A DNA stretch of 64,000 bases from Bacillota bacterium (GTDB lineage Bacteria > Bacillota > Clostridia > Acetivibrionales > DTU013), in assembly GCA_023435925.1 (NCBI GenBank), contig JAEZLF010000288.1:13-64012 (forward strand), given 5' to 3'. Of the stretch, positions 7,759 to 54,650 are shown piece by piece (the stretch's first letter is position 1; each line of letters opens with the position of its first letter). The position numbers and the translations under genes are program-made. The notes under the pieces were generated by a model. It searched no databases, was not told where the DNA came from, and worked only from the letters and a program-made list of their open reading frames with translations.

Positions 7759-7800
7759 TACTTTATTTATAGATGCATTGGTTTGGGGGCTTGCTTTGCA

Positions 7801-14110: not shown

Positions 14111-14127
14111 GAAGTGAGACAGATATA

Positions 14128-15408: not shown

Positions 15409-15435
15409 AGTAAAAAAGCGAATGGAGGAGGAAGC

Positions 15436-18400
15436 GTGGTTGTAACTAATGAAAAATGTTATATTTGCGGCGCAAGAACAGATTTCAATATAGTTAGTGA
15501 GGCTACATTGTTAAGAGAAGCTCAATGTGCTGTTTGTAGTGCAAGTTTACGGAACTCTGATGTAGCAAAATATATTGTAAAGGCCTTATTAAATCTAGAT
15601 TTATCTTTGAAAGAATGCATTGATGATTTGACGAAATTTAAAATATTGGAAGCGGCCTCCTCTGGACCAATCCATGATATGATCAAGGATCTACCATTCT
15701 ACACATGCTTTGAATACTATGATGGTATAAAACCTGGTGAGTATATAAACGGAGTCTTATGTAATGATCTCCAAAACCTTACTTTTAATAGTGAATGTTT
15801 TGATCTAATAATAACACAAGATGTTATGGAGCATGTGAAAAATCCAGAAAAAGCGATTAAAGAGATTCAACGGGTACTCAAAAATGGTGGAGTTCATATA
15901 TTTAGTGTACCTTTACATGACTACAAGAAAACTACTTCAAGGAAGGATTTAAAGCCAGTTTTTCATGGCGATCCGCTAAGAGATGGCATTCAGGTGGAGA
16001 CAGATTGGGGTCTGGACATATGTGAAATAATTGATAGATATGGAATGAAGACAGTTCAATATAATCAGCATACTTTTTATGAATCTGATGAGTTAACAAA
16101 TGTAGATATTGAATATGACAAATATATGAATAGTGAGCACATAAACTTTTTTAAATACAATTCAGTGGTTTTTGTTTCTCAGAAAAAGCAAGAGGGTGAT
16201 ATGGTGAAATTTACAGGAGAAAGATATATCCCGGGAAAATCCGACAGCTTGGAAATGGATATAGAACACTTACAGAGATATTACACATTAGGAGATATAG
16301 TTAAAGGTAAGGTTATTGTAGATGCAGCCTGTGGTGAAGGATACGGGTCTATGTATCTAGCGAATAGAGCATCAAAGGTTATTGGAATTGATATATCTGA
16401 AGAAACCATTAATACTGCTAAAAAAATATATAAGAGAGATAATTTAGATTATCTTTGTGCATCTATAGATAACATTCCAATTGAAGATAAATCTGTTGAC
16501 ATAATAATTTCATATGAAACGATTGAGCATGTCGATAGTAAAACTCAGCATGGGTTTATGAGTGAAATAAAAAGAATACTTAAGGATGATGGGCTTTTGA
16601 TAATATCAACCCCGAATAAGGAAGTATATTCGGATCTTTTTAACTATAAAAATCCCCATCATGTTAAAGAGTTTAATACAAGTGACTTTCGCTTTTTTTT
16701 AAAAAGCTACTTCGAACATGTTAAAATGTATTACCAGAGGTTTGAAGTGGCTTCCCTGATAAACTCAGGTGAAGAGAGCTATATTAAGGTTGTTAATAGA
16801 GATGTAACACCAATTCATAATAGTAAATATCTGATTGCTGTATGTAGTAATTTTGATATTAGCATTTCGATGAGTTCTATAGTGTACGAGAAAGATAGAA
16901 AGTACATCAAATTGATTCAAAGGATTATAGAAACTCAGAATGAAATCGAAAAACTGGGGGCATGGGGAAAGCAGTTGGATGAAGAAATTAGGAAGAGAGA
17001 TGAATTAATAGGATCACAGAATACAAGGATAGAAGAACTCTCAGTATGGGGGAAAATGCTGGATGAAGAGGTCATCAATAAGAATGATATCCTCGCATCC
17101 CAGAATGCAAAAATTGAAGAATTATCTTTAAAGGCAGAGGCTCTGGAGAATGAAAATACTACATTAAATAAGTTAATTAAATCCATAGAGACGACCTCTG
17201 AGCACATTTTAGATGATCAGGAAGAACGCATGCAGTCTCTGCTGGAAAAAGAAAAGGAACTGGATAATATTTATCGATCCAGAGGGTGGAGATATCTATT
17301 AAAGGCATATAAACTTGAGGATAAGATAATACCCCTTCATAGTAAGCAGAGAGAAGTATTAAAAGCTCCTTACTTTATGCTGAAGAACCTGAAGCTTATC
17401 GTAAAGCACACTAACAGGGAGAACTTGAAGAAGTTTTATTCTTATGCAAAGAAGGAGAGTCCAACACAGGTTTTACAGCACATAAAAAGTTATCTCAACC
17501 GATACAAACCTATTGCAAAAATGGAGCTGCAGATTTATGATGCAACCGATAAATACGAAAAGCTCAGTTTTGTATATTCAAGTCATCCGCTTGTTTCAAT
17601 TATTATTCCTGTTTATAATCAATGGAAGTACACCTATTCTTGTCTTTGCTCCATCCTGCAAAACACAGCAGGCATAGAGTATGAGATTATCATTGCTGAC
17701 GACGGGTCCACGGATGAAACAAGTCATATTGAAGATTATGCTGAAAATGTTATTGCTATCAGGAATACCAAAAACCTTGGTTTTCTGCTGAACTGTAATC
17801 ATGCAGCAAAGCAGGCCAGGGGCAAATATATTATGTTTTTAAACAATGACACCAATGTTCAGAAAGACTGGCTGAGGTATCTGGTTGAATTAATTGAAAA
17901 GGACAGCAAAATTGGCATGGTAGGTTCAAAGCTGGTTTATGCAGACGGAAGACTTCAGGAAGCAGGGGGTATTATCTGGAAGGATGCCAGCGGATGGAAC
18001 TATGGACGGCTGGATGATCCTGAAAAGCCTGAATACAACTATGTAAAGGAAGTCGACTATATATCAGGTGCAAGCATTATGATACGAGCAGACCTCTGGT
18101 ACAAGATAGGAGGGTTTGATGAAAGATTTGCTCCAGCATATTGTGAAGACAGTGACTTGGCATTTGAGGTCAGAAAGCATGGATATAAGGTTATGTTCCA
18201 GCCGAAGTCGGTTGTTGTACACTTTGAAGGTATATCTCATGGAACAGATACAGGTACAGGTATTAAGAGTTATCAAGTAAAGAATAGAGAAAGGTTCCTC
18301 GATAAATGGGAAGAAACCTTAAAAACAGGACAATTCGATAATGGGCAGAATGTATTTTTAGCAAGAGATCGAAGCAGAAATAAAAAATCTATACTGGTAA

Positions 18401-19500
18401 TAGACCATTACGTGCCTCATTATGATAAAGATGCAGGATCAAGAACCACATTCCAATATCTTAAACTATTTACAGAAATAGGACTTAATGTAAAGTTTAT
18501 TGGCGATAATTTTTACAGGCATGAGCCTTATACCAGTGCTCTCCAGCAATTAGGAGTTGAAGTGTTGTATGGCGTATGGTATAGTGATAATTGGAAAAAG
18601 TGGATTAAGGAAAATGCTGAAGAAATTGATTATGTATATCTGAACCGTCCTCATATTTCGATTAAGTATATTGATTATATTAGAAATAATACAAAAGCTA
18701 AAGTTATATATTATGGGCATGATCTACATTATTTGAGAGAGCTAAGAGAGTATGATATCTCAAGAGACAGTGAAATTCTAAAGTCAGCTGAAAATTGGAA
18801 GAAAATAGAGTTTAAAATCATAGGGAAAGCCGATGCAGTCTACTATCCTTCGCAAATAGAAATTGATGAAATAAGAAAGCATATACCCAAGGTTAATGCG
18901 AAGGCAATACCAGCATATATTTTTGACATAACAGAGTCTACAAATGAGTATATCCCAGAAGACCGAAAAGACATTATGTTTGTAGGAGGTTTTACGCATA
19001 AACCCAATATTGATGCAGTATTATGGTTTGCCAAAAAAATTTATCCATTAGTTTTAAATGAGATTCCGAATATGAAGTTCTATATAATTGGATCAAACCC
19101 TACGGATGAGGTTAGAAAATTAGCGTCAGACAGCATCATAGTTACAGGATTTGTATCTGATGAACAGTTAGACAAATATTATGAGAGTTGTAAACTGACT
19201 GTTGTGCCCCTAAGATATGGTGCTGGAGTCAAGGGTAAAATTGTTGAGGCAATGTTTAAGCAAATGCCTGTAATAACAACGCCAATTGGTGCTGAGGGCT
19301 TAATTAATATTGACAAAGCTTTAGTAACTGCAGAGAGTAATGATGAGTTTGCAAACTACATTATACGGTATTATAATAATGATAATTTACTAGAAGAGTT
19401 AACTAAATCTGCTTTTAATTATGTTAAGAAATACTTTACGAAACAGAGTGTTATAGATTCTCTTAAGAATGACATTGTCATTAATAATAAAATGAGATAA
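15436..19500 (+). CDS. Multidomain glycan synthase/terminator: Zn-ribbon, two class-I SAM methyltransferase domains, coiled coil, GT2, C-terminal GT4-like domain (WsaE-like)
   Basis: CYICGARTDF...CAVCSASL (two CxxC). MT1: FDLIITQDVMEHV...LKNGG. MT2 begins like a stand-alone enzyme: MVKFTGERYIPG...VDAACGEGYGS...LKDDG. Heptad-rich segment at residues about 488-615. GT2: IIIPVYNQ...IIIADDGSTDET...FLNNDT. The last 370 aa or so resemble retaining GT-B enzymes. Confidence 0.8.
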   Translation: MVVTNEKCYICGARTDFNIVSEATLLREAQCAVCSASLRNSDVAKYIVKALLNLDLSLKECIDDLTKFKILEAASSGPIHDMIKDLPFYTCFEYYDGIKPGEYINGVLCNDLQNLTFNSECFDLIITQDVMEHVKNPEKAIKEIQRVLKNGGVHIFSVPLHDYKKTTSRKDLKPVFHGDPLRDGIQVETDWGLDICEIIDRYGMKTVQYNQHTFYESDELTNVDIEYDKYMNSEHINFFKYNSVVFVSQKKQEGDMVKFTGERYIPGKSDSLEMDIEHLQRYYTLGDIVKGKVIVDAACGEGYGSMYLANRASKVIGIDISEETINTAKKIYKRDNLDYLCASIDNIPIEDKSVDIIISYETIEHVDSKTQHGFMSEIKRILKDDGLLIISTPNKEVYSDLFNYKNPHHVKEFNTSDFRFFLKSYFEHVKMYYQRFEVASLINSGEESYIKVVNRDVTPIHNSKYLIAVCSNFDISISMSSIVYEKDRKYIKLIQRIIETQNEIEKLGAWGKQLDEEIRKRDELIGSQNTRIEELSVWGKMLDEEVINKNDILASQNAKIEELSLKAEALENENTTLNKLIKSIETTSEHILDDQEERMQSLLEKEKELDNIYRSRGWRYLLKAYKLEDKIIPLHSKQREVLKAPYFMLKNLKLIVKHTNRENLKKFYSYAKKESPTQVLQHIKSYLNRYKPIAKMELQIYDATDKYEKLSFVYSSHPLVSIIIPVYNQWKYTYSCLCSILQNTAGIEYEIIIADDGSTDETSHIEDYAENVIAIRNTKNLGFLLNCNHAAKQARGKYIMFLNNDTNVQKDWLRYLVELIEKDSKIGMVGSKLVYADGRLQEAGGIIWKDASGWNYGRLDDPEKPEYNYVKEVDYISGASIMIRADLWYKIGGFDERFAPAYCEDSDLAFEVRKHGYKVMFQPKSVVVHFEGISHGTDTGTGIKSYQVKNRERFLDKWEETLKTGQFDNGQNVFLARDRSRNKKSILVIDHYVPHYDKDAGSRTTFQYLKLFTEIGLNVKFIGDNFYRHEPYTSALQQLGVEVLYGVWYSDNWKKWIKENAEEIDYVYLNRPHISIKYIDYIRNNTKAKVIYYGHDLHYLRELREYDISRDSEILKSAENWKKIEFKIIGKADAVYYPSQIEIDEIRKHIPKVNAKAIPAYIFDITESTNEYIPEDRKDIMFVGGFTHKPNIDAVLWFAKKIYPLVLNEIPNMKFYIIGSNPTDEVRKLASDSIIVTGFVSDEQLDKYYESCKLTVVPLRYGAGVKGKIVEAMFKQMPVITTPIGAEGLINIDKALVTAESNDEFANYIIRYYNNDNLLEELTKSAFNYVKKYFTKQSVIDSLKNDIVINNKMR

Positions 19501-23291: not shown

Positions 23292-26200
23292 GTGAAAGAT
23301 AAAAACATACAGGAATCGAGAAGTGTTGAAATCAAAGGAATCGGCGTATGGGTTAGTGTATTCATCGCTATCACATTTGGTATTTTTGGGCCACTTGGAT
23401 TATATATAACCAATATAAATGAATTTTGGTTTTCTATAGGAGACATATGGTGGATTGCTTTGCTAGGAGGCTTACTTCTGTTTGCTGTATGCTTTGGAGT
23501 AAATCTTATTTTTAAAGACAAAAAACGCGAAATTTGCGCATGCCTGATATTTGGCGTGTCGTTGGGTTTCTATATTCAGGGGAATTGGGTTACTACTGAT
23601 TACGGGATACTGGATGGTAAAAATATCAATTGGAGTGCATATGCAGACATAGCAATTATAAATACTATGATATGGGTAATATGTTTCATGCTACCATTTG
23701 TCCTACGTCATTTCCTTCCAGAATACTGGAAAAAGATAATTAAGTATGCAGCAATTTTTTTTGTACTCATTCAGATCATTACGCTCGGAACGCTGCTGAT
23801 GACAACGAATCTCAGTCAGAACGATTCTGATACCTATCTGACGACTGACGGACAATTTGAATTATCCAAGAACGAAAATATTGTTATTTTTGTTCTTGAT
23901 GCTTTTGATTCGAGTTATTTAAAGGCGTTAATGGAAGAATACCCAGAACTAACGAGTGCCTTTGATAATTTTACATATTACCCGGACATGGTAGCCGGTG
24001 GAGCAACGACAAAGATTGCCATGCCAGCAATACTGACGGGAGTGCCATACACTCAATCCATCTCTTATTCAGACTACATTAATTATGCATATACGCAGAC
24101 CGATCTTTTTATTAAGCTCAAAGAACAGAATTATTCCACCGGGATATATACGATTCCAACTTTTGTTTCATCATCGCAGAGCGATTTGGTTGATAACCTC
24201 ACGACGGGAAAAACTAAAATAAATTCATATGGTAAGCTTGCAAAATATATCTATCAATTTGCTGCGTTTCGATACATGCCCCATTTATTGAAAAGTAAAT
24301 TCTGGTTTTACAGTGGCATATTTGACGAACTGAAGAGTGGTAGTAATGCCAAAAACTATTCTTATGATAATGTGACATTTTATCAAAACATGATGGAAGA
24401 TGGAATTTCATCCGATATAGAAGGAAATTCATTTAGATTGTACTACCTGCTGGGAGCGCACCCACCTTATGAGATGAATGAATATGCGGAAAAAGTATCG
24501 CCAAATGAAACATCACAACTACAACAGGCAAAAGGCTCTCTTTATATAATTGAGGAGTATATGAATCAACTCAAACAAGCAGGTATTTATGATAACACAG
24601 CCATTATAATTATGGCAGATCATGGCGACATTGGTCATCATCACAATCCTTTATTTATGATAAAATTATTCGGTGAGTCAAAGGATTTTTGTACTTCATA
24701 TGCACCGCTGTCATATTATGACCTACACGCTACGTTGCTATCAATTATAACCGGGAACGATAAAGATTATGGGAAAACGATTTTTGATTTTGAAGAAGGT
24801 GATAAGAGAGAACGCTATTTTTACTTCAATGCGTCTGAGAATTATTTAACATCAATTGTGGAATATGCAATTAACGGGTATGCGGGGGATGATAGTTCTG
24901 TTATAGCGACTGGCAATATCTATACAGGCAATTCTGACGACTCGTTAATTGCGCATGAATATGATTTTGGAACGGTATTGACTTTTGGACCTGATGGAAC
25001 AGCCATGTCGCATTGTATTAGCGGGTTCAGTGGTATTGATATGCTCAACTATACGTGGACAGATGGGAAAACAGCCAAGATGAGATTTGATTTGTCGGAA
25101 ATACCAAATCAGAACCTAATTACTAGTATCAATACGATGGTATACTCCAGTGTTAGATCCCAACGTGTTATCGTTAGGGTCGGGGAAAAGATAGTTCATG
25201 CAGGGATCTACGACAAAACCTCAACAATCGATTTTGTTGTCCCCAAAGAGTTGCTTGACGGCAAGACATTGATACTTGACTTTGAGTTTCCTGATGCTGT
25301 ATGCCCCCAGGAAGTATTCGGCGCAGGTCATGATTCTCGAACTCTTGCATTCGCATTAATGAATATGTCGATATCAGAAGGTATTCTCGAGGATGAAAAT
25401 GAAATATGCAGTTATTCTCTTGGTGATGTTATAGAGTTTACAAGTGAAAAGAACGGTACGAGATATTTCAAAAATGGTATAAACAAAATAGACCAAAACT
25501 ACGCATGGTCATCTGGCAATAAGAGCTGGATGATTATGGAAACCGGTGAAGTTGACAGTAATTTAGTGTGTTTTATAGATTTTGCCAGTGTTTTAAATGG
25601 GAGTCAGCGATTGACTATATCTACAAGAGGAACTACACTATATGATGACATTGTAACTTCTGATAAAAAGACAATAAGCTTTACGATACCGGCAGAATAT
25701 ATAGCCTCACAAACTATTTCCTTAGATTTTGAATATCAAGACGCGGCTTCTCCCAAGAATTTTGGTACTGGTACAGATGTGCGAGTTTTAGCAGTAGCAT
25801 TTAAATCGATTACTATTAAAAGAACCGATGAATATATGAAATTCAAGAAATTATTTTTTACTGACGGAAAAGCTGTGATTAGTTTTTCCGAGGACGGCAA
25901 CGATAAGTTGTATATAACTGAAGGCACAGATTGGTATACTAATCAAAAAACTTATCGCTGGACTGGAAAATATGCAGAACTTCAAACCGATATAGATTCT
26001 GATGTTGATTTGACTATGACTGTCTATGGATATGTCTATCAGCAATCGGGCGGAAGTATCGTTACACTTAATGGAACTGTCGTAGCCAATTTGGATGCTG
26101 GAGATGGTTTTAGGCAATATGAGATAGCGCTGCCAAGTAAACTACTAAAAGCAGACGGATTACAGACTATAGCATTTTCCTCAGAAAATGCGGTATCGCC

Positions 26201-26297
26201 ATTTGATGCGGGTACCGGAAAAGATAAAAGGGAATTGGGGATCGCTCTTAGTACGATCACTTTTGAAAAAGTATCAATTGTAGGTGAGGGTTCATAA
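23292..26297 (+). CDS. Polytopic alkaline-phosphatase-superfamily transferase (LtaS/EptA-like) with three C-terminal repeat modules
   Basis: Five N-terminal hydrophobic helices. Catalytic-domain motifs IVIFVLDAFDSSY, GGATTKIAMPAILTG (Thr nucleophile region as in phosphoethanolamine transferases) and IIIMADHGD. Three modules of about 140 aa each end in FGAGHDSRTLAFALMNMSI, FGTGTDVRVLAVAFKSITI and DAGTGKDKRELGIALSTITF. GTG start after GGAGG. Confidence 0.65.
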   Translation: MKDKNIQESRSVEIKGIGVWVSVFIAITFGIFGPLGLYITNINEFWFSIGDIWWIALLGGLLLFAVCFGVNLIFKDKKREICACLIFGVSLGFYIQGNWVTTDYGILDGKNINWSAYADIAIINTMIWVICFMLPFVLRHFLPEYWKKIIKYAAIFFVLIQIITLGTLLMTTNLSQNDSDTYLTTDGQFELSKNENIVIFVLDAFDSSYLKALMEEYPELTSAFDNFTYYPDMVAGGATTKIAMPAILTGVPYTQSISYSDYINYAYTQTDLFIKLKEQNYSTGIYTIPTFVSSSQSDLVDNLTTGKTKINSYGKLAKYIYQFAAFRYMPHLLKSKFWFYSGIFDELKSGSNAKNYSYDNVTFYQNMMEDGISSDIEGNSFRLYYLLGAHPPYEMNEYAEKVSPNETSQLQQAKGSLYIIEEYMNQLKQAGIYDNTAIIIMADHGDIGHHHNPLFMIKLFGESKDFCTSYAPLSYYDLHATLLSIITGNDKDYGKTIFDFEEGDKRERYFYFNASENYLTSIVEYAINGYAGDDSSVIATGNIYTGNSDDSLIAHEYDFGTVLTFGPDGTAMSHCISGFSGIDMLNYTWTDGKTAKMRFDLSEIPNQNLITSINTMVYSSVRSQRVIVRVGEKIVHAGIYDKTSTIDFVVPKELLDGKTLILDFEFPDAVCPQEVFGAGHDSRTLAFALMNMSISEGILEDENEICSYSLGDVIEFTSEKNGTRYFKNGINKIDQNYAWSSGNKSWMIMETGEVDSNLVCFIDFASVLNGSQRLTISTRGTTLYDDIVTSDKKTISFTIPAEYIASQTISLDFEYQDAASPKNFGTGTDVRVLAVAFKSITIKRTDEYMKFKKLFFTDGKAVISFSEDGNDKLYITEGTDWYTNQKTYRWTGKYAELQTDIDSDVDLTMTVYGYVYQQSGGSIVTLNGTVVANLDAGDGFRQYEIALPSKLLKADGLQTIAFSSENAVSPFDAGTGKDKRELGIALSTITFEKVSIVGEGS

Positions 26298-26299
26298 TA

Positions 26300-28201
26300 A
26301 TGGATACGATTATTTCTATTTTTGCTCAACTCCTTGGCTATGTGATGGATTTTTGCTATTCACTGCTCCACAATTATACTCTTGCCATTATTCTGTTTAC
26401 CCTCCTGACCAAGGTCATCTTACTCCCGGTATCAATTTGGGTGCACAGAAATGGCATCAAGATGGTACGTATGATGCCAGAAATTAATCGCTTCAAGGTT
26501 AAATATTTTGGTGATGGGGATAGTATTGCTGAAGAACAGCAGGCCCTATACAAACGCGAGAAATATAATGCTTTTGCAAGTATAATTCCAATGCTTATAC
26601 AGATCATTCTTTTGATTTCTCTTGTACGCGTTATTAATGTGAGTCTTGGCGGGACAACGCTTACAATGATACCTGTGCAGGCGAAAGGTCTTTCATTACT
26701 GATGCCTCTGGCGGCTGGTGCATCGGCGTTTATTCTTTCTATAACCCAAGACAGGATTAATCCTTTACAAAGAGAACAGAGCCGTATTAGTCAAATATCC
26801 ACCATGGCACTTTCGGTTGGGATTTCGTTGTTTCTCGGAGCTTTTGTTTCCATTGGCGTCGGTTTGTACTGGATATGCAGCAACCTATTCACTATTTCGC
26901 AGCAGCTTTTTTTGAATGCAATCATACCGCCTAAAAAGTATATTGACTATGAGGATCTGGAAAAAAGCAAGAGAGCTTTGGAGGAGCTAAACAAAATAGG
27001 TGATAGAAGTAAGAGAAAATGGAATGAAAAAGATCCGGATAAGAAGCGTGAGAAGGCAGATTATAAACGCTTTTTCTCTATCGCTAATAAGCACTTGGTA
27101 TTCTATTCTGAAAAGAGCGGGTTCTACAAGTATTTTGAAAACGTTATTGAGGAGCTATTACGCAGATCAAATATCATAATCCACTATATCACCAGCGACC
27201 CAAAAGACCAGATATTTGAGCTTGCTAAAGAGCAACCTCGTATAAAGCCGTATTATATTGGCGAAAAACGTTTGATTACCCTCATGATGAAGATGGATGC
27301 GGATATGGTGGTCATGACCATGCCTGATCTGGATAATTATCATTTTAAGCGATCCTATGTGCGAAAGGATATTGAATATGTATATATGTTCCACTATCCG
27401 TTAAGCACTCATTTGGTGCTTCGAAAAGGTGCTCTGGATCACTATGACACAATTTTTTGCGTAGGTGAATTTCAGTTTGATGAAATACGTGAAACTGAAA
27501 AGCTCTATTCCTTACCGGAGAAAAAACTAATAGCTGCTGGTTACGGACAATTAGAAAAGCTTTACGATAGTTACAGTAAGATGCAAAAGATTGCCCGTAC
27601 GCAAAAAAAAGTACTGATAGCACCATCCTGGCAGCAGGATAATATTCTTGACAGCTGTATTGATAATCTGCTTGCAGCCCTTTTGGGACAAGGTTTTCAA
27701 GTAATAGTACGTCCTCACCCGGAATATGTTAAGCGTTATGGTTTCCGGATGGATGCTATTGTCGAGAGATATAGGGAATATAATGGAGGCGATTTGGCCT
27801 TTGAACTGGATTTTTCCAGCAACAATTCGATTTTTGATTCAGATGTAGTAATTACTGACTGGTCAGGTACAGCATATGAGTTTTCGTTTGTTACGAAGAA
27901 ACCATCCGTCTTTATTAACACTCCACCCAAAATCAACAATCCGGAGTATAATAAGCTATCTGCGGAGCCACTGGAGATAACATTGCGGGACAAGATCGGT
28001 ATTCAAATGGAACCGGGTCACTTAGAAAACATCTCAGTCGAAATTAACAAACTACTGGATTCTTCAGGAGAGTATCAGAGTGAGATTACATCTATTGTAG
28101 ATAACTATATTGCTAACTTTGGTCATAGTGGGGAGATCGGAAGCAGATATATCATTAGCAGATTAAAAGAGATTGGAGTGAAGAGATCAAATGAAGGCTG
28201 A
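26300..28201 (+). CDS. Fusion protein: YidC/Oxa1-like membrane domain plus CDP-glycerol glycerophosphotransferase (TagB/TagF)-like domain
   Basis: N-terminal region: NYTLAIILFTLLTKVILLPVSIW, MMPEINRFKVKYFGD, QQALYKREKYNAF, IIPMLIQIILL (YidC pattern). A charged linker follows. C-terminal region: KVLIAPSWQQDN, VRPHPEY, VVITDWSGTAYEF (Glyphos_transf pattern). Confidence 0.65.
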   Translation: MDTIISIFAQLLGYVMDFCYSLLHNYTLAIILFTLLTKVILLPVSIWVHRNGIKMVRMMPEINRFKVKYFGDGDSIAEEQQALYKREKYNAFASIIPMLIQIILLISLVRVINVSLGGTTLTMIPVQAKGLSLLMPLAAGASAFILSITQDRINPLQREQSRISQISTMALSVGISLFLGAFVSIGVGLYWICSNLFTISQQLFLNAIIPPKKYIDYEDLEKSKRALEELNKIGDRSKRKWNEKDPDKKREKADYKRFFSIANKHLVFYSEKSGFYKYFENVIEELLRRSNIIIHYITSDPKDQIFELAKEQPRIKPYYIGEKRLITLMMKMDADMVVMTMPDLDNYHFKRSYVRKDIEYVYMFHYPLSTHLVLRKGALDHYDTIFCVGEFQFDEIRETEKLYSLPEKKLIAAGYGQLEKLYDSYSKMQKIARTQKKVLIAPSWQQDNILDSCIDNLLAALLGQGFQVIVRPHPEYVKRYGFRMDAIVERYREYNGGDLAFELDFSSNNSIFDSDVVITDWSGTAYEFSFVTKKPSVFINTPPKINNPEYNKLSAEPLEITLRDKIGIQMEPGHLENISVEINKLLDSSGEYQSEITSIVDNYIANFGHSGEIGSRYIISRLKEIGVKRSNEG

Positions 28202-29327
28202 ATTCTTTTTAAATATACTAAGTGAAAATTTGGGGGTAGATTTTTATGCAGGCGTGCCGGATTCTCAGCTCAAAGCATTATGTAACACTCTCTATGAGAA
28301 GTATGGATTGGGAGATAAGCATATTGTCGCAGCGAATGAAGGTGCTGCTGTTGGCCTGGCTGCTGGGCATTACATTGCCACTGGAAAGCCTGCCCTTGTG
28401 TATCTTCAGAACAGTGGGATCGGTAATATAATTAACCCTGTTGCCTCTTTACTGAATGAAATGGTATATGGTATTCCCTGCGTGTTTGCGGTAGGCTGGA
28501 GAGGAGAACCTGGAATCAAGGATGAGCCCCAGCATGCTTTTCAAGGCGAAGTGACAATTTCTCTATTGGAACTGATGAAAATAAAATGCTTTACCCTTTC
28601 CAAGGAAACGAAGAATGAAGAATTTCTTGAGTTTATTCAGCAGAGCAGAGAGCTTATTGCTGAAGGGAAAAGTATAGCTTTTGTTGTATGTAAAGGTGCA
28701 CTGGAAACCGACATCAAGCCTCACTTCGGAAATAATAATAAAATAAAGAGAGAAGATGCGCTTAGAACAATTGTAAAAAGTGCGAGCGATGGAGATATTT
28801 TTATTTCTACTACAGGAAAAACGTCCCGTGAATTATTTGAAATAAGAGAGGCTTTGGGGCAGGGACATGAAAAAGACTTCCTGACAGTGGGATCAATGGG
28901 ACATGCCTCTATGATAGCTATGGGAATAGCAATGGAATTGCCTGAGAGGACAGTGTGGTGTATTGATGGTGATGGAGCAGCGGTAATGCATTTGGGTAGC
29001 ATGGTGGTGCTGGCGAAGACTGGATGCAAGAATTTAATACATGTAGTATTTAATAACGGTGCTCACGAAAGTGTGGGAGGTATGCCGGTAGCATATGGTA
29101 AAACGGATTTTTGTTCACTGGCTAAAGCTGCAGGATATAATATTTGTATGAAAGTTTCGGATCATGCTGAGCTTATAGAAGCCTTAAATACCGCTACGAA
29201 GACGGAAGGAACTTTCTTTATAGAAATATTGGCAGCTCTGGGCTCAAGGGATGATCTAGGCAGGCCAACTACAACACCAAAAGAAAACAAATCAGCTCTT
29301 ATGAAATTTCTGAGAGAGGTGAAATAG
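28191..29327 (+). CDS. ppd: Phosphonopyruvate decarboxylase (ThDP-dependent)
   Basis: About 378 aa. ThDP motif GDG-x25-NN (IDGDGAAVMHLGS...VFNNGAHES). N-terminal GVPDSQLK block typical of Ppd/AepY. Context with PEP mutase supports the call. Confidence 0.85.
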   Translation: MKAEFFLNILSENLGVDFYAGVPDSQLKALCNTLYEKYGLGDKHIVAANEGAAVGLAAGHYIATGKPALVYLQNSGIGNIINPVASLLNEMVYGIPCVFAVGWRGEPGIKDEPQHAFQGEVTISLLELMKIKCFTLSKETKNEEFLEFIQQSRELIAEGKSIAFVVCKGALETDIKPHFGNNNKIKREDALRTIVKSASDGDIFISTTGKTSRELFEIREALGQGHEKDFLTVGSMGHASMIAMGIAMELPERTVWCIDGDGAAVMHLGSMVVLAKTGCKNLIHVVFNNGAHESVGGMPVAYGKTDFCSLAKAAGYNICMKVSDHAELIEALNTATKTEGTFFIEILAALGSRDDLGRPTTTPKENKSALMKFLREVK

Positions 29328-29331
29328 ATTA

Positions 29332-30066
29332 ATGAAAGCTTTGCTTTTAAATTCCGGTCTTGGAAGTAGAATGGGGAAGTTGACAGATGACAAGCCAAAG
29401 TGTATGTGCCCAATAGGAAATGGGTACAGTATCATAAGTTGGCAGTTAGAACTATTACGGACGCATGGAATTATGGATATTGTGATTACTACAGGCCCTT
29501 TTGAAAGGTCACTGAAAGAGCACGTCCTGACCTATGGAGAAGGATTAAACTTTACCTTTGTCAACAATCCGATTTACCAAGAAACAAATTATATTTTTTC
29601 CATGTATTTGGCAAGAGAGCATTTAAAAGATGATATTCTACTTTTACATGGCGATCTTGTATTAGAACCTTCTGTTGTTGCAGACCTGTTATTTTCAGAC
29701 CATAGTGTAGTAACAGTGGATAAATTACTGCCTCTTCCGGAAAAAGATTTTAAAGCAAAGCATGACGGCAGTAAGATCAAAGCGGTGGGAATTGAATTCT
29801 TCGGGAATGACTGCGAAGCCTGCCAACCGGCATATAAATGGACTAAAGCTGACTTTGCTTTGTGGATGAATGAAATTGAAGCATTCTGCAAAAGAGGTAA
29901 AACAAAGGTCTATGCCGAGAATGCATTTAATTGTGTAAGCGACCAGATAGATTTGTATCCCCTGGAACTTGAAAAGAGACTCTGCAATGAAATTGATAAT
30001 TTGGACGATCTGATGGCAATTACCGAAAGATTTCAACGATTATTAAGTAAGGAGAGGAAGCAATGA
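29332..30066 (+). CDS. LicC/PntC/TarI-like nucleotidyl(cytidylyl)transferase
   Basis: MKALLLNSGLGSRMGKLTDDKPKCM glycine-rich NTP-binding loop; about 244 aa. The substrate cannot be assigned from sequence. Confidence 0.65.
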   Translation: MKALLLNSGLGSRMGKLTDDKPKCMCPIGNGYSIISWQLELLRTHGIMDIVITTGPFERSLKEHVLTYGEGLNFTFVNNPIYQETNYIFSMYLAREHLKDDILLLHGDLVLEPSVVADLLFSDHSVVTVDKLLPLPEKDFKAKHDGSKIKAVGIEFFGNDCEACQPAYKWTKADFALWMNEIEAFCKRGKTKVYAENAFNCVSDQIDLYPLELEKRLCNEIDNLDDLMAITERFQRLLSKERKQ

Positions 30067-31355
30067 AAAAAGTTTATATGTGCTTTAGCACAGATATTAT
30101 TCACAATGGGCACATGAATATTATTCAAAAAGCTTCAAAGCTTGGAGAGTTAACAGTTGGAGTTCTAACGGATGAGGTGGTTGCCACATTTAAACGGTAT
30201 CCTCTGATCCCTTTGGATGAACGCATTCAAATGTTTCAAAACATTAAAGGTGTGGCAAAAGTTGTTGTTCAGGATAAGCTAGAGTATAACGATATTTTAA
30301 ATCAGTTAAAGCCAGATATTGTTGTTCATGGTGATGATTGGCATACAGGATATCAAGCTGGAATTCGTGATAAAGTTATTGAGGTTCTAAAAGGATGGGG
30401 AGGTAAGCTTGTTGAATATCCTTACACGCATTCTCCAACGGAAGAAACCCTTAGCAGCCTTGATCAAAAACTTTCTATGCCTGAAAATCGCCGCTCAAGG
30501 TTAAAGAAGTTGTTACAGTATAAGCCTTGTTTATCAGTATTAGAAGCGCATAATGGCCTTACTGGATTGATTGTGGAACATACGAAGGTAGATACGGGCA
30601 CTGGTGTAAGGCAGTTTGATGCGATGTGGGTCTCCAGCCTTTGTGATTCTACTGCAAAAGGTAAGCCAGACATCGAACTGGTGGATATGACCTCCCGAAT
30701 CAATACACTAGAGGAAATTATGGAAGTAACAACAAAACCAATCATCCTGGATGGGGATACTGGCGGACTGACCGAGCACTTTATTTTTACTATAAGGACT
30801 TTAGAGAGAATAGGTGTATCTGCTGTTATTATTGAAGATAAGACTGGATTAAAGAAGAATTCACTTTTTGGAACTGACGCCGAGCAGGTTCAAGAGTCCA
30901 TTGAGAAATTCTGTGAGAAGATCAGTGCAGGGAAAAACGCATTGAAAACCAAAGATTTTATGATTATTGCGCGATGTGAAAGCCTTATTTTGAATCAAGG
31001 CTTGGAAGATGCACTTAAGAGATGTAAGGCATATGTGGAAGCAGGAGCGGATGGTATTATGATTCATTCCTGCAGAAAGGAGCCCGATGAGGTTCTGGAA
31101 TTTTGCAGAAAATTCCGTGAGATAGATCTATCTACGCCGATCGTAGCGGTGCCTACAACGTACAACAGTATTACTGAAGAAGAATTGGGGGCTGCCGGTG
31201 TAAATATAGTAATTCATGCAAATCATCTTTTAAGAAGTGCATTTCCTGCTATGCAGAAAGTTGCAAAGACTATACTTTCTCACTCTAGAACCCTTGAAGC
31301 AGATGAATACTGTATGCCAATTAAAAGTATTCTAACGCTGATTCCAAATGAATGA
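30063..31355 (+). CDS. pepM: Bifunctional HxGH cytidylyltransferase :: phosphoenolpyruvate mutase (Fom1-type architecture)
   Basis: Residues 1 to about 135: FSTDIIHNGHMNII (HxGH) of the TagD-like cytidylyltransferase fold. Residues from about 140 to 430: LSVLEAHNGLTGLIVE, FDAMWVSSLCDS and the PepM-diagnostic EDKxxxxxNS motif (EDKTGLKKNS, nt 30834-30863). Confidence 0.9.
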   Translation: MKKVYMCFSTDIIHNGHMNIIQKASKLGELTVGVLTDEVVATFKRYPLIPLDERIQMFQNIKGVAKVVVQDKLEYNDILNQLKPDIVVHGDDWHTGYQAGIRDKVIEVLKGWGGKLVEYPYTHSPTEETLSSLDQKLSMPENRRSRLKKLLQYKPCLSVLEAHNGLTGLIVEHTKVDTGTGVRQFDAMWVSSLCDSTAKGKPDIELVDMTSRINTLEEIMEVTTKPIILDGDTGGLTEHFIFTIRTLERIGVSAVIIEDKTGLKKNSLFGTDAEQVQESIEKFCEKISAGKNALKTKDFMIIARCESLILNQGLEDALKRCKAYVEAGADGIMIHSCRKEPDEVLEFCRKFREIDLSTPIVAVPTTYNSITEEELGAAGVNIVIHANHLLRSAFPAMQKVAKTILSHSRTLEADEYCMPIKSILTLIPNE

Positions 31356-31370
31356 AAGGGGTGCTCACTT

Positions 31371-32510
31371 ATGAGACAATATTTGCCTTTTTCACCTGTA
31401 GAGATTGTCTTTACATCCCGAAAGGAAGCAATAGTTTACCTGAAAGATCTGGTTTTCGGAGGAGATAGATCTTTGCTGTTAGCTAGTGAAGGAAGGATTA
31501 ATGCGCTAGGATCAGGACAATGGATTTCAGATTTAAAGGATTCTGGAAAGATCATTCATCTTAGCCAAATTCCCGTTAACCCAACTGTTTTAGATGTTTA
31601 TAGTAATCTTAAGATGCTGCAGGGGACCCAACTGAATCAAATTATTGCAATAGGCGGTGGAAGCTGTATTGATCTTGCAAAAGCAATTAGTGCTCTCCAC
31701 TATTTGATACAGGAAGACAAATTATCTGTACAATCTGTGCGCAACGCCATCAAAGACAAGAAATATCTGAACGGGCATCGTTTTATAGATGTTATAGCAG
31801 TACCTACAACATCGGGAACAGGGTCTGAAGTAACTAAGTGGGCAACAATCTGGGATATGGAGCAGAAAGAGAAGCTATCTGTGGACAGCGTTAACAGCTT
31901 TCCCAAAGTGGCATTGATTGCCCCGGACATTACAACATCTGTGCCTGCTCGGTTATCACTTTCAACAGGATTAGATGCACTTTCGCATGCAATGGAAGCA
32001 TTTTGGGCCAGAAGCAGATCACCATTGTCTCAGGCATTAGCAATATCGGCAATCGAACTTGTGAAAAAGTTTCTTCCCCAAGTGCTGAATGATGGCAGAA
32101 ATGCAGAGTATCGAGAAGGGATGAGTTTAGCTTCATTATTGGCTGGTCTAGCCTTTTCTATGACCAGAACGACAGCATGTCACTCTATATCTTATCCGTT
32201 AACAATGCATTTTGGTGTGGAACACGGCTTTGCGACAGCCATGACTCTGATCCAAGTAGCAGAACGTAATGAAGCTGTTGTACCTGAGATTAGCAGAATA
32301 TATTCAATCTTTGGAGGAAAAACGGCATTCATTCAATGGTTTAAAGATGTAACACATCCAGTTTTAGACTTAAAATTATCTGCCTTTGGAGTTTACCTGA
32401 CCGATTTGGATTTTATTGCGGAAAGAACTTTTACTCAAGGAAGAATGGATAATAATCCGATTACATTTTCTCAGCAAGAAGTGAAAGATATATTGCAGAA
32501 GGCTTTTTAA
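31371..32510 (+). CDS. Group-III iron-containing alcohol dehydrogenase, predicted phosphonoacetaldehyde reductase (PhpC/FomC-like)
   Basis: GGGSCIDLAKA, TTSGTGSEVT, HAMEAFW and CHSISYPL metal/NAD(P) motifs. Lies immediately downstream of pepM. Confidence 0.75.
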   Translation: MRQYLPFSPVEIVFTSRKEAIVYLKDLVFGGDRSLLLASEGRINALGSGQWISDLKDSGKIIHLSQIPVNPTVLDVYSNLKMLQGTQLNQIIAIGGGSCIDLAKAISALHYLIQEDKLSVQSVRNAIKDKKYLNGHRFIDVIAVPTTSGTGSEVTKWATIWDMEQKEKLSVDSVNSFPKVALIAPDITTSVPARLSLSTGLDALSHAMEAFWARSRSPLSQALAISAIELVKKFLPQVLNDGRNAEYREGMSLASLLAGLAFSMTRTTACHSISYPLTMHFGVEHGFATAMTLIQVAERNEAVVPEISRIYSIFGGKTAFIQWFKDVTHPVLDLKLSAFGVYLTDLDFIAERTFTQGRMDNNPITFSQQEVKDILQKAF

Positions 32511-32658: not shown

Positions 32659-32910
32659 TTGAGTATTATCAATTTAATGAATCAGATACCTACTCTGTTA
32701 CCCAAAGTTTTTTTCGCTTATATTGACCCGTCAGTAATGACCTATACGATACAGGCGGTTGCAGGTGTTGTTATAGCTATCGGTGCGGTTGTTGGCATTG
32801 TTTGGCGAAATGCCAGAAAAAAAGCGAAGCAGGTCCTCAATATTGATGATAACGCCAAAAAAGAGGTTGAAGAGGATGTTGTAGAGATTGACCCTGATGA
32901 GAAGAAATAA
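32659..32910 (+). CDS. Small hypothetical membrane protein with an acidic tail
   Basis: TTG start after GGAAGGGGG. One clear TM helix (YTIQAVAGVVIAIGAVVGIVW), a basic patch RNARKKAKQ, then KKEVEEDVVEIDPDEKK. No family recognised. Confidence 0.4.
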   Translation: MSIINLMNQIPTLLPKVFFAYIDPSVMTYTIQAVAGVVIAIGAVVGIVWRNARKKAKQVLNIDDNAKKEVEEDVVEIDPDEKK

Positions 32911-39485: not shown

Positions 39486-39528
39486 TGGCTTCATTGACCT
39501 TATAAAGTGCTTGGGATGGAACAAACGT

Positions 39529-41106
39529 ATGAGAGTAAAATCGACAATCATTAATAGCACTTTTAATATCATAGCACAAATCATTCAATTGGTTCTGAGC
39601 TTCATTGTCCGCAATCTATTTATTAAGTATATTGGGATAGAATTTTTAGGACTCAGTGGTCTTTTTACAAATATACTTTCCGCGTTGAATCTGGCGGAGC
39701 TTGGTGTAGGCACAGCAATTACCTACTATTTGTACAAACCCATGACCGAAATGGATAAAGGGAAAATTAAAGGGCTGATGATATTTTACAGAAAGCTTTA
39801 TTATTCTATTGGTATGTTTATCATCGTCATTGGATTATTAATATTGCCCTTAATCCAGTTTTTTATTAAGGATCAGTCATTGGATTTGCCGTACATCAGG
39901 GTACTCTTTTTGATACAACTTGCAGGAACAGCTTCTACTTATTTCTTGGCATACAAACGTACGCTTTTGTTTGTTGATCAAAAAAACTACATAGCATCCA
40001 TCGTTGATTCATCTATGAATATTGTGATGATGGTTGTTAGGGTTGGAGCATTGATCTATCTTAAAAGCTATGTAGCGTATTCTATTGTTATTCTTATTCA
40101 GACTGTTTTGGGCAATGTGATTATATCAATGATTTGCAGTAGAAAATATGATTTCCTAAAAGATAAACAATTGACGGCGGAACATATTGATAGGAAAAGC
40201 GTATTTCGTGACTTAAAAAATATTGTCATTGAAAAAATTGTCAGCTACATCCATTATTCTACGGATAATATCTTGATTTCCAAGTTTATCGGGCTGGCGA
40301 GTACCGGGCTTCTTGCTAACTATACGTTAATCTACAGTACGGTACAGACATTTATCGGGCAGGTTACCAACGCTGTGCAGGCATCTCTGGGCAATTATAT
40401 AAACTCAGGCAACGAGGATAGGGATGTTTATATTGTGTTCAAACGTTTTAGTTTTTTATGTTATTTATGTACCAGCTTTAGTGTGGTTTCATTTTTGGTA
40501 TTAATTCAACCATTTATCAATTTATGGCTTGGAGAGAAATATATACTTCCGTACTATATTATTATTATTTTATGTGTATCCTTTTTTATCTCTGTAATGC
40601 GGGTACCGCTTATTCAGATGGTGTCTATTTATGGATTGTTTAAAGAGATGAAGTATGTAGCTATTTTAGCGGCATCTGTTAATTTGACGATATCAATAGT
40701 CATGATTCAATTTATTGGAGTAGCAGGAACATTACTGGGGACGTTGGCCAGTGAAGCAATATATTTTATAGGCCAATCCTATTATGTCCTTGGAATAAAG
40801 CTAAAGATTCCATTAAAAGTGTCTATTCAAAGAATGGGAGTGTTTTCATTTATAACGATATCTGCAGTTGTAGCAACAGTATTTACCAGTAACAAATTAT
40901 TTATATCTGCTTCGATCATTGCATTTATCGGGAGAGCTTGTTTGTGTATCTTCATCCCTAATTTTCTCAACATCTTGGTTTACTGGAAAAGTGATGAAAT
41001 GAAGTACTACAAAAATTTATTCATTCTTGTATATGATAAAGGCTTAGCTAAAATAAGAGGCGGTACTAACAATAGAAAGAGAGAGGGGTCGTCAAATGAG
41101 GAATGA
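39529..41106 (+). CDS. wzx: Wzx-type (MOP superfamily) lipid-linked oligosaccharide flippase
   Basis: At least 12 hydrophobic segments. N-terminus IINSTFNIIAQIIQLVLSFIVRNLFIKYIG is typical of the Polysacc_synt family. Located inside the glycosyltransferase cluster. Confidence 0.75.
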   Translation: MRVKSTIINSTFNIIAQIIQLVLSFIVRNLFIKYIGIEFLGLSGLFTNILSALNLAELGVGTAITYYLYKPMTEMDKGKIKGLMIFYRKLYYSIGMFIIVIGLLILPLIQFFIKDQSLDLPYIRVLFLIQLAGTASTYFLAYKRTLLFVDQKNYIASIVDSSMNIVMMVVRVGALIYLKSYVAYSIVILIQTVLGNVIISMICSRKYDFLKDKQLTAEHIDRKSVFRDLKNIVIEKIVSYIHYSTDNILISKFIGLASTGLLANYTLIYSTVQTFIGQVTNAVQASLGNYINSGNEDRDVYIVFKRFSFLCYLCTSFSVVSFLVLIQPFINLWLGEKYILPYYIIIILCVSFFISVMRVPLIQMVSIYGLFKEMKYVAILAASVNLTISIVMIQFIGVAGTLLGTLASEAIYFIGQSYYVLGIKLKIPLKVSIQRMGVFSFITISAVVATVFTSNKLFISASIIAFIGRACLCIFIPNFLNILVYWKSDEMKYYKNLFILVYDKGLAKIRGGTNNRKREGSSNEE

Positions 41107-43062: not shown

Positions 43063-44013
43063 ATGGAGGAATTCAGGCTCACTACACCTGTTACTTTTAT
43101 TATCTTCAACAGACCGGATACTACACAAAAAGTATTTGATGCAATAAGGCTCGCAAAACCGGAAAAGCTGCTTTTAATTGCCGACGGTCCGCGGGATGGC
43201 AGGCCGGGAGAACGTGAAAAGTGTGAGCAAACGAGGAAAATAGTTGAGAACATTGATTGGGAATGCGAGGTACTGAGAAACTATTCAGACATTAATATGG
43301 GCTGTAAAAAAAGGGTTTCCAGCGGATTGAACTGGGTATTTGAAAATGTGGAGGAATCTATTATTCTGGAGGATGACTGTCTGCCGGATCCCTCGTTTTT
43401 TCGTTATTGTCAGGAGCTTCTGGAGAAGTATCGTGATGACGAACGGGTTATGGTAATATCCGGTGATAATATGCTTTTTGAAAAAAATATGCAGGAGCAT
43501 AGTTATTATTTTACGAAATATGTACACATCTGGGGATGGGCGACCTGGAGAAGAGCATGGAAGCTTTATGATGTCAACATTGAATTGTGGCCGAAAGCAA
43601 ATGAAAAGGGCCTGCTGCTTGGTATTGTTGATAAGCTTGAGCTATACCAATGGAAGAACAACTTAAACAGTGTATATGCTGAAAACTTTGATACATGGGA
43701 TTATCAGTGGGTTTTTTCAATTTGGATGCAGTCTGGTCTTAGTATTGCACCTGGTAAAAACTTAATATCGAATATTGGATTTAATCAGGATGCAACACAT
43801 ACGCATGGCGCTAGCATATATTCCAATATGCAAACAGAGCCGTTAACCTTTCCGCTCAAGCATCCTCCATACATTATAAGAGATATTCAAAATGACAAGA
43901 TAGAAAGCCGTATTTGTTATAAAGACTCTAAGTACCTTTGGTTGGGTCCATTTGTGCCATACCTGCGTAGGGTTAAAAGGATGATGCAGAAATTAATTGG
44001 AATGAATAGATAG
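43063..44013 (+). CDS. GT-A fold glycosyltransferase (GNT-I/HlpA-like family)
   Basis: TFIIFNRPDTT...LLLIADGPRDG...ILEDDCLP (DxD-type motif). Soluble, 316 aa. Confidence 0.6.
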   Translation: MEEFRLTTPVTFIIFNRPDTTQKVFDAIRLAKPEKLLLIADGPRDGRPGEREKCEQTRKIVENIDWECEVLRNYSDINMGCKKRVSSGLNWVFENVEESIILEDDCLPDPSFFRYCQELLEKYRDDERVMVISGDNMLFEKNMQEHSYYFTKYVHIWGWATWRRAWKLYDVNIELWPKANEKGLLLGIVDKLELYQWKNNLNSVYAENFDTWDYQWVFSIWMQSGLSIAPGKNLISNIGFNQDATHTHGASIYSNMQTEPLTFPLKHPPYIIRDIQNDKIESRICYKDSKYLWLGPFVPYLRRVKRMMQKLIGMNR

Positions 44014-53151: not shown

Positions 53152-53165
53152 GAGGTGTGAATGAT

Positions 53166-54499: not shown

Positions 54500-54650
54500 G
54501 ATAAGAGAACATACAGCACAAGGAACGGGGATGCTTCTAAAAATACCATAGCAGAGAAGTTTCCCCGACTGTTTTGATTGCATTATATTATTACATTTCC
54601 GAATAGCGGCAGATGAGTACAAATAAAAACGAATGAAAAGGGGTCTTGAT

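Follow-up and report, generated by a model that had tools for sequence, protein, structure and literature searches.

What does a phosphonate biosynthesis cassette do within a long co-directional run of envelope-glycan genes (rmlDACB included), and where would its product end up? The question is raised by a contig of a Bacillota bacterium (Clostridia, Acetivibrionales, DTU013; GenBank assembly GCA_023435925.1, contig JAEZLF010000288.1), of which a 64,000-nt stretch, hereafter the window and always meant at its whole length, was analyzed. The function of all genes was inferred from sequence, and the family and motif screens of the window content covered open reading frames (ORFs) of at least 150 aa. 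An earlier reading of the letters, made without database searches (the sequence-only reading), had placed here a cassette of four tightly packed, co-directional genes and proposed that it supplies cytidine monophosphate (CMP)-2-hydroxyethylphosphonate (CMP-HEP) as an activated donor for envelope glycans. The four ORFs were confirmed, all on the + strand; the limits drawn at that time hold for these genes and not for the functional unit, which is wider and comprises seven genes, i.e., the cassette together with an LtaS-like gene and a YidC::TagF-like fusion upstream and a small membrane-protein gene downstream. We consider it probable that the seven genes constitute an envelope-modification module, in which CMP-HEP would be made and its HEP phosphonyl group transferred to the cell envelope.

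Predicted route from phosphoenolpyruvate to CMP-HEP

Strong homology supports the first two predicted steps, from phosphoenolpyruvate (PEP) to phosphonopyruvate by a PEP mutase (PepM, also called Ppm) and from there to phosphonoacetaldehyde by a phosphonopyruvate decarboxylase (Ppd). The Fom2-like Ppd (378 aa, 28191-29327, + strand; TPP_enzyme_N and TPP_enzyme_C domains) scored 457.8 bits against the TIGR03297 equivalog model, for which the cutoff is 312.5, the sulfopyruvate decarboxylase models stayed far under their cutoffs, and the thiamine diphosphate motif GDG-x25-NN was located at aa 260. PepM forms the C-terminal domain (aa ~141-430, 30483-31355) of a 430-aa cytidylyltransferase::PepM fusion (CyT::PepM; 30063-31355, + strand; PF01467 followed by PF13714). 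It exceeded the cutoff of the TIGR02320 equivalog model (409.8 bits vs. 319.55, fusion aa 147-429), its nearest solved structure is a PEP mutase (5unc, E 3e-46, 37% identity), and it carries EDKTGLKKNS at fusion aa 258 (nt 30834-30863), i.e., the EDKxxxxxNS motif that separates Ppm from other enzymes of the isocitrate-lyase superfamily (PMC6697681). The sequence-only reading had named another member of this superfamily as the case that would speak against it; this was not borne out, as the PrpB, Pphn-hydrolase, and CPEP-mutase models remained far below their cutoffs, and this candidate was rejected.

The N-terminal domain of the fusion (aa 1 to ~135, 30063-30470, + strand) is a Fom1-type HxGH cytidylyltransferase. 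CTP_transf_like (PF01467) matched it at 1.3e-16 over aa 11-100, the HNGH motif lies at aa 14 inside FSTDIIHNGHMNII, and the structure of the Fom1 cytidylyltransferase (5x3d) aligned with 50% identity over 124 aa (E 2.2e-38). Weaker relatives were ethanolamine-phosphate cytidylyltransferase (ECT, E 2e-13) and TagD; a TagD-like synthase of cytidine diphosphate (CDP)-glycerol was rejected, given E 2e-38 for Fom1 vs. 8e-6 for TagD. Fom1 is the enzyme demonstrated to produce CMP-HEP, and HEP is its known substrate (PMC6697681). The predicted formation of CMP-HEP from HEP and cytidine triphosphate (CTP) by this domain is well supported. All three motifs quoted in the sequence-only reading (GDG-x25-NN, HxGH, EDKTGLKKNS) were found where it had put them, and its identification of Ppd, PepM, and the Fom1-like domain agrees with the equivalog scores and the structural comparison.

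The intervening step, from phosphonoacetaldehyde to HEP, is predicted for a 379-aa PhpC/FomC-like Fe/Zn alcohol dehydrogenase (ADH; 31371-32510, + strand; PF00465 + PF25137). It belongs to group III of the Fe-ADHs (Fe-ADH domain 5e-27, ADH_Fe_C 1.4e-34), and its best NCBIfam model was TIGR03405, Phn_Fe-ADH (235.5 bits). The hallmarks of PhpC are the ligands D191, H195, H260, and H274, the K157/R349 clamp, and Tyr264, which does not vary in PhpC and is replaced by Phe in sulfoacetaldehyde reductases (PMC13576164). Mapped by a constant offset and not by alignment to a characterized PhpC, residues D202, H206, H271, and H285 of the window ADH have exactly the spacing of the PhpC metal ligands, and the HEP-binding residues have counterparts in K168, R358, and Y275, the last placed four positions past the second His ligand; the same Tyr/Lys/Arg set is kept in both ADH classes that are linked to related cassettes. 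In addition, homologs at 48-65% identity carry the NCBI name "phosphonoacetaldehyde reductase". This predicted step is therewith well supported, in line with the HEP-forming group III Fe-ADH that had been proposed from the sequence.

A second putative activating enzyme, a 244-aa LicC/PntC-like nucleotidyltransferase (NTase; 29332-30066, + strand), is encoded between ppd and the fusion gene and is presumed to be a phosphonate cytidylyltransferase. It matched NTP_transf_3 (PF12804) at 6.5e-10, and the closest solved structures were LicC (1jyk, 2e-11) and the Treponema PntC (Tde-PntC; 6pd1, 8e-5), as expected from the earlier LicC/PntC-like assignment. His106 of its HGDL motif aligns with the amine-binding Glu104 of Tde-PntC and Asp105 of LicC, a mapping that is provisional as it was taken from a pairwise HMMER alignment only; the acidic residue by which PntC is recognized is thus replaced. 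The HGDL His is present in 67 of 73 related loci. Its use as a marker of specificity for HEP vs. 2-aminoethylphosphonate (AEP) was rejected, because HGDL is equally invariant in a sub-group of relatives that have no ADH.

The predicted product of the cassette as a whole, CMP-HEP, is well supported. Since the first three enzymes correspond to the early steps of fosfomycin, phosphinothricin, and dehydrophos biosynthesis (PMC8942020), the cassette might instead yield a free, secreted, antibiotic-like phosphonate unrelated to the envelope. However, the screened ORFs of the 64 kb included no equivalents of Fom3, FomD, Fom4, HEPD, or MPnS and no AEP transaminase, radical-SAM enzyme (methyltransferases included), epoxidase, dioxygenase, nonribosomal peptide synthetase, or ATP-grasp gene, and they offered neither a resistance gene nor an exporter specific to the cassette. 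An antibiotic pathway was rejected on this lack of tailoring genes, a conclusion to which the sequence-only reading had also come. Its statement that the neighbors are glycan-assembly genes was reproduced by the family search, i.e., all of them are glycan or envelope genes, and translation of the cassette is coupled to that of a TagF-like transferase tethered to the membrane, which leaves a free small molecule as an extremely improbable product.

Candidate transfer genes coupled to the cassette

The seven genes are laid out in a compact manner. The stop of the LtaS-like gene is found 2 nt before the start of the YidC::TagF gene, the 3' end of the latter extends 11 nt into ppd, and the spacings between ppd, NTase, fusion, and ADH genes are +4, -4, and +15 nt, with the NTase stop and the fusion start overlapping as ATGA. 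The genes from 23292 to 32510 are accordingly overlapping or close-packed in an operon-like fashion, and with the small gene following the ADH gene, the phosphonate cassette is inserted within a YidC::TagF/small-gene pair. A promoter and terminator scan of the region from 19 to 36 kb of the window was uninformative, as the counts were near the shuffled expectation. The guanine plus cytosine (GC) content is 0.40 in the cassette and 0.33-0.37 in the flanks, a difference too small to call a horizontal insertion.

The gene that runs into ppd encodes a 633-aa YidC::TagF-like fusion (26300-28201, + strand; PF02096 + PF04464), which public records label merely "YidC insertase". PF02096 matched with 113 bits and the five-helix YidC/Oxa1 core occupies aa 1-231; PF04464 matched with 31.2 bits (cutoff 22.1) over profile positions 150-291 only, and the TagF-like GT-B domain extends over aa ~262-600. 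In the AlphaFold2 model (pLDDT 85), a disordered linker joins the five membrane helices to the GT-B domain, which comes after the last YidC helix and is therefore predicted to be cytoplasmic. The top Foldseek match was TagF (3l7l/3l7k, E 2e-9, template modeling (TM) score 0.56), ahead of generic GT-B enzymes, YidC (6al2) matched the N-terminal part, and the capsule polymerase Bcs3 (8a0m) was also matched. The Foldseek alignment between the TagF-like domain and TagF has 15-17% identity, and the sequence search against the PDB returned YidC alone, with no phmmer match to TagF. The two active-site histidines of TagF are H444 and H584 in S. epidermidis; in the TagF-like domain, invariant histidines are present in both Rossmann halves (H365 and H371 in one, H473 within RPHP in the other).

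The LtaS-like membrane protein (1001 aa, 23292-26297, + strand) has 4-5 N-terminal transmembrane helices (segments at 11-174), followed by an extracytoplasmic domain of the Sulfatase/alkaline-phosphatase type (PF00884 Sulfatase, 41.3 bits vs. a cutoff of 25). Its sole sequence matches in the PDB were to LtaS (2w5q, 2w8d) and were weak (E 7e-6). The C-terminus consists of three repeats of ~150 aa (nt 25000-26294, aa ~570-1001) that belong to no Pfam family, each ending in G-[TA]-G-x-D-x-R-x-L-[AG]-[FVI]-A; these may be carbohydrate-binding modules.

On the other side of the cassette, the small conserved membrane protein (83 aa, 32659-32910, + strand) begins at a TTG codon that lies 8 nt downstream of a strong ribosome-binding site, GGAAGGGGG. 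It has a signal-like N-terminus, the motif AYIDPSVMTYTIQ (AYIDPSV), a KK-rich stretch, and an acidic tail, with one transmembrane helix at aa 25-53, and matched no Pfam family. It aligns clearly with the product of an 81-84 aa gene directly after YidC::TagF in three of the YidC::TagF-anchored contigs described below (L081, L082, L084), with the shared pattern AYIDPSVMTYTIQ...WRRAKKK...IDENAKKEVEED, and the small gene stands beside YidC::TagF or the cassette in 20 loci. Judged by this conservation, the small protein is a predicted obligate partner of YidC::TagF.

Which donor would such a transferase use? No other TagD-like and no second TagF-like sequence was found anywhere in the 64 kb, so CMP-HEP would be the sole locally encoded donor of the CDP-alcohol type. 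CMP-HEP is the predicted substrate of the TagF-like domain because of the fold and topology of this domain, the overlap and fusion of the genes, their synteny, and the lack of other CDP-alcohol donors, and YidC::TagF is therefore a candidate CMP-HEP-using phosphonotransferase.

The proposed module would operate as follows. In the cytoplasm, PepM would convert PEP to phosphonopyruvate, Ppd would decarboxylate it to phosphonoacetaldehyde, and the PhpC-like ADH would reduce the latter to HEP, which the Fom1-like HxGH domain, possibly with or replaced by the LicC-like enzyme, would activate with CTP to CMP-HEP, which resembles CDP-glycerol in structure. On the cytoplasmic side of the membrane the TagF-like domain, tethered by the YidC core, would attack the phosphonate phosphorus and release CMP, placing the HEP-phosphonyl on a membrane-bound acceptor; its final site would be an envelope glycopolymer, to which it would be joined as a phosphonate ester. 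Concerning the acceptor, we favor a weakly supported sub-model in which it would be a lipid (such as diacylglycerol or a glycolipid), yielding a phosphonolipid similar to phosphatidylglycerol; the hydrophilic groove of the YidC-like domain would shift this lipid to the outer leaflet, where the LtaS-like enzyme would move the HEP-phosphonyl onto the rhamnose/heptose glycopolymer that the neighboring Wzm/Wzt transporter exports. With glycerol phosphate, GacH and LtaS proceed as proposed here for the LtaS-like enzyme and the HEP-phosphonyl. In a simpler alternative, the TagF-like domain would decorate a lipid-linked glycan directly, prior to export.

The same genes could also be read as a polymerizing system. 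The free hydroxyl of HEP would allow the TagF-like and/or the LtaS-like enzyme to join HEP head to tail, so that the product would be poly(2-hydroxyethylphosphonate), a C-P analogue of the poly(glycerol phosphate) of wall or lipoteichoic acid, and not single side groups. Both TagF, the best structural match of the transferase, and LtaS, to which the solved structures closest to the Sulfatase protein belong, are polymerases, the triad of LtaS-like, YidC::TagF, and small genes occurs alone, away from glycan genes, in L081 and L082, and in chemical terms CMP-HEP would mimic CDP-glycerol just as a diacylglyceryl-HEP lipid would mimic phosphatidylglycerol. Nevertheless, a primase type that makes a single transfer (TagB) and a polymerase look alike in sequence, and the module of the window is embedded in a heteroglycan cluster. 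In the actinomycete HEP glycans, HEP is reportedly present as ester side groups and not as chains. The sole characterized HEP glycans, those of two actinomycetes, are described in PMC13576164 as phosphonoglycans into which HEP is incorporated. We hence regard such a phosphono-teichoic acid as unlikely. In a bolder version, YidC::TagF, the LtaS-like enzyme, and the AYIDPSV protein might be a widespread Clostridia machine that builds a phosphonate analogue of (lipo)teichoic acid; CMP-HEP would be turned into a phosphonolipid similar to phosphatidylglycerol at the inner side of the membrane, the YidC-like domain would act as a dedicated scramblase and not as an insertase, and the LtaS-like enzyme would polymerize or transfer the HEP-phosphonyl units outside. 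This is a rather doubtful proposition, which, if true, would mean that abundant anaerobes of gut and rumen have an anionic wall polymer with C-P bonds.

Gene order in related genomes

The seven-gene module was compared with the gene order in other genomes. The fusion protein has 122 relatives in a species-representative genome set (the best 88% identical), nearly all of them in Clostridia metagenome-assembled genomes (Oscillospiraceae, Christensenellales, Ruminococcus, and Faecalibacterium-type), and the module is common in the gut and rumen genomes of these groups; other carriers are Brachyspira, Clostridium algidicarnis, and Anaerotruncus. Two samples were compared, namely 80 PepM-anchored loci from relatives of the fusion protein and, in reverse, nine contigs anchored on YidC::TagF homologs, eight of which were informative (contig L091 ends too soon). 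A survey of this kind had been suggested by the sequence-only reading in order to see if the neighborhood is conserved; the core of ppd, LicC-like NTase, and CyT::PepM is kept in ~70 of the 80 loci, with the NTase between ppd and pepM, and an ADH gene of one of two classes comes next in ~49 of the 73 NTase-bearing loci. In five contigs (L056, L086, L087, L089, L090) the LicC-like NTase is fused in frame to CyT::PepM, and the junction of this triple fusion (for instance, L056 9278-11293) is the site of the ATGA overlap of the window. A further triple fusion (L084 10227-12245) is broken by a stop codon just past the HxGH motif; this break may be genuine or may stem from a sequencing error.

YidC::TagF was present within the examined flank of 18 of the 80 PepM-anchored loci. 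The gene order of the window (YidC::TagF, ppd, NTase, CyT::PepM, ADH, small gene) recurs in eight complete and two truncated loci, the cassette follows the small gene in five of the eight informative YidC::TagF-anchored contigs, and the small gene is found immediately before YidC::TagF, upstream of the cassette, in L051, L054, and L071. Among those five contigs, L084, L087, L089, and L090 have the PepM fusion, Fe-ADH, and Ppd, and L086 has the PepM fusion and Fe-ADH followed by a transposase, with no Ppd. The cassettes next to YidC::TagF are accompanied by an Fe-ADH in all five of these contigs as well as in 17 of the 18 PepM-anchored loci. The exception is L024 (63-5270), in which YidC::TagF, Ppd, NTase, and CyT::PepM are followed at once by the small gene, the ADH being absent from this place. 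With its gene coupled to ppd in the window and co-occurring with HEP cassettes in many genomes, the TagF-like protein lends weight to the earlier proposal that CMP-HEP would serve as an envelope donor.

The partners of the transferase were followed in the same way. A homologous Sulfatase gene precedes YidC::TagF in L081, L082, L002, L014, L051, and L071. The 818-aa protein that precedes it in L084 has no similarity to the LtaS-like protein of the window, so that the proteins encoded upstream of YidC::TagF do not all come from a single family. Elsewhere, the LtaS-like, YidC::TagF, and small genes stand directly together, with no cassette between them; this triad family counts >120 clusters in Clostridia, at 55-85% identity. 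The TagF-like domain family comprises 551 representative clusters at E <1e-30, and its best-scoring full-length members are mostly fused to a YidC-like N-terminal part. In single polypeptides of 1168-1545 aa (P0242, P0260, P0283), Sulfatase, YidC, and TagF-like domains are even combined, ordered Sulfatase-DUF7024-YidC-TagF in P0242 and YidC-TagF-Sulfatase in P0260 and P0283, and the existence of such fusions argues that the three work as one machine.

Such a machine might be independent of phosphonates and use CDP-glycerol or phosphatidylglycerol, with HEP being attached otherwise, e.g., as a cap at the non-reducing end that terminates the glycan exported by the ABC transporter and is read by the C-terminal domain of Wzt. 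The absence of nearby phosphonate genes from L081, L082, and L088 would fit this, and so would the Wzt_C domain of the window Wzt and the methyltransferase domains, which are typical of chain terminators. The alternative is, however, hard to reconcile with the 11-nt overlap of YidC::TagF and ppd, with a cassette that lies inside the YidC::TagF/small-gene pair here and adjoins it in at least three other arrangements, and with the lack of TagD or another CDP-glycerol gene in the 64 kb as well as of LicD-like or other phosphonotransferase candidates among the annotated ORFs, and we deem it very unlikely.

The observations that count against the seven-gene module as proposed are the following. No YidC::TagF was found in the examined flank of 62 of the 80 PepM-anchored loci. 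Conversely, L081, L082, and L088 have YidC::TagF but no phosphonate genes within 8-10 kb, and the YidC::TagF machine may accept another donor there, or the donor genes may be elsewhere; L088 in particular has the large glycosyltransferase, heptose genes, a 964-aa protein, YidC::TagF, and the small gene as in the window, and no cassette. The ADH scored below the TIGR03405 cutoff of 423.7, and two unrelated cytidylyltransferases are paired with a single predicted phosphonate. Moreover, the model is inferential throughout, and the YidC domain of the window protein could be a mere anchor.

The two cytidylyltransferases, which always occur together, and the low ADH score could also mean that the end product is not HEP but, e.g., AEP, formed by a transaminase encoded elsewhere, or a derivative with an added hydroxyl or methyl group, activated by one of the NTases. 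A sub-group of loci (L021-L039, with Faecalibacterium, Christensenellales, and Clostridia annotations) has kept Ppd, NTase, and CyT::PepM and has no Fe-ADH, and both loci that were inspected (L022 4497-5672 and L031 13759-14940) encode a class I/II aminotransferase (PF00155) at a distance of no more than ~3 kb; this sub-group may be an AEP-type or other branch. Its existence would favor a product other than HEP. For the window this is highly improbable, since it lacks a transaminase, dioxygenase, or radical-SAM gene, its ADH carries the PhpC signature residues, and the ADH is co-inherited with the cassette in most NTase-bearing loci.

Known systems and the surrounding glycan cluster

The CMP-HEP-forming module has counterparts for most of its parts. 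The early fosfomycin pathway of Streptomyces (Fom1, Fom2, FomC) has the same fusion architecture, the same Ppd and Fe-ADH steps, and the same predicted intermediate, CMP-HEP; in contrast, the window has no Fom3 radical-SAM methyltransferase, FomD hydrolase, or Fom4 epoxidase, and has an additional LicC-like NTase. Its genes are located amid envelope-glycan genes of the Clostridia type, and CMP-HEP is predicted to be a donor and not a transient intermediate. With the Pnt pathway (Rice et al. 2019, PMC6697681), the cassette shares the logic of nucleotidyl activation of a two-carbon phosphonate for the cell surface and a PF12804 enzyme beside Ppm, and its double NTase has the layout of the "triple fusion" class of that study, split at the same junction. 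The differences are a branch enzyme that is an ADH (HEP) and not an AEP transaminase, the His at the position of PntC Glu104 and LicC Asp105, and a candidate transferase that is TagF-like and YidC-fused and not LicD-like. In the same survey, PF01467::Ppm fusions made up 23.6% and triple fusions 2.8% of Ppm, and the phosphonyl tailoring after the CMP conjugates was summarized as "subsequent steps remain enigmatic" (PMC6697681).

The route via PepM, Ppd, and a PhpC-type reductase is also that of the phosphonoglycans with HEP from Glycomyces sp. and Stackebrandtia nassauensis (Yu et al. 2014, as cited in PMC8942020 and PMC13576164). Both are Actinomycetes, and the accessible parts of the literature citing these glycans do not report the YidC::TagF/LtaS-like/small-protein machine. 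HEP-type neighborhoods accounted for 8.5% of 434 and fell into ten families, two of which have isolated products, i.e., the methylphosphonate of Nitrosopumilus and the HEP exopolysaccharide of Stackebrandtia (PMC8942020), and a paper of September 2026 lists two actinomycetes only for HEP glycans (PMC13576164). Our literature search on HEP glycans of Clostridia and on YidC-TagF fusions found nothing relevant; the sequence-only reading had likewise been aware of no HEP-bearing wall glycan in a clostridial-type cluster. The cassette type is already known from genome surveys (PMC6697681, PMC8942020), its chemistry up to CMP-HEP is established for Streptomyces, and the novelty therefore lies in the lineage and the transfer machinery.

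As for this machinery, TagF/TagB and capsule polymerases have PF04464, the GT-B fold, a peripheral or cytoplasmic site, and a CMP-linked donor of the alcohol-phosphate type in common with the window enzyme, which differs by its covalent fusion to a YidC/Oxa1 core and by its predicted phosphonate donor. LtaS and GacH share with the LtaS-like protein a multi-transmembrane N-terminus and an extracellular Sulfatase-type domain, and like that of GacH, its gene is found beside a rhamnose-polysaccharide cluster of the ABC-transporter type. The window protein is very divergent (E 7e-6 to LtaS), has ~470 extra C-terminal residues in its three repeats, and is coupled to YidC::TagF by gene order and, in some species, by physical fusion.

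For the transfer step of the HEP branch, the window locus offers, together with its relatives in other genomes, a concrete and testable candidate system. In marine high-molecular-weight organic phosphorus, HEP esters represent a major phosphonate form, and dedicated HEP catabolism is widespread (PMC8931226, PMC13576164). If HEP is indeed placed on or in wall polymers by the module, C-P compounds of anaerobic ecosystems would have a large source that has gone unrecognized, the walls would have an anionic chemistry that resists phosphatases, with relevance for recognition by phages, lysins, and the host immune system, and a YidC/Oxa1 domain would have a new, non-insertase role.

Further glycan and envelope genes are found in the rest of the window. 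A tandem pair of paralogous membrane proteins (~620 aa each) with Wzy_C (O-antigen ligase/polymerase-like) is encoded at 5920-9678, immediately before the rml genes. The region at 13133-19500 comprises Wzm and Wzt, the latter with the carbohydrate-binding Wzt_C domain, followed by a 1354-aa protein with two methyltransferase, one GT2, and one GT1 domain, a layout of ABC-transporter-dependent glycans in which chain length is set by terminal modification. The pathway to guanosine diphosphate (GDP)-heptose is present as HddA, GmhA, HddC, and GmhB. Downstream of the cassette, a GT2, a Bac_transf initiating transferase, GDP-mannose/6-deoxyhexose genes, and several further glycosyltransferases were found. 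A 645-aa fusion of a GHMP sugar kinase and a nucleotidyltransferase (41096-43033) suggests a predicted salvage-type activation of sugars via the sugar-1-phosphate, and is flanked by two ORFs (39511-41106 and 43063-44013) that both belong to no Pfam family. Two adjacent OEP genes (TolC-like outer-membrane efflux) and a MacB-like gene are located at 51997-54335 and 62586-63962, and an SLH-domain protein at 54633-56936, in a lineage otherwise annotated as Clostridia/Bacillota.

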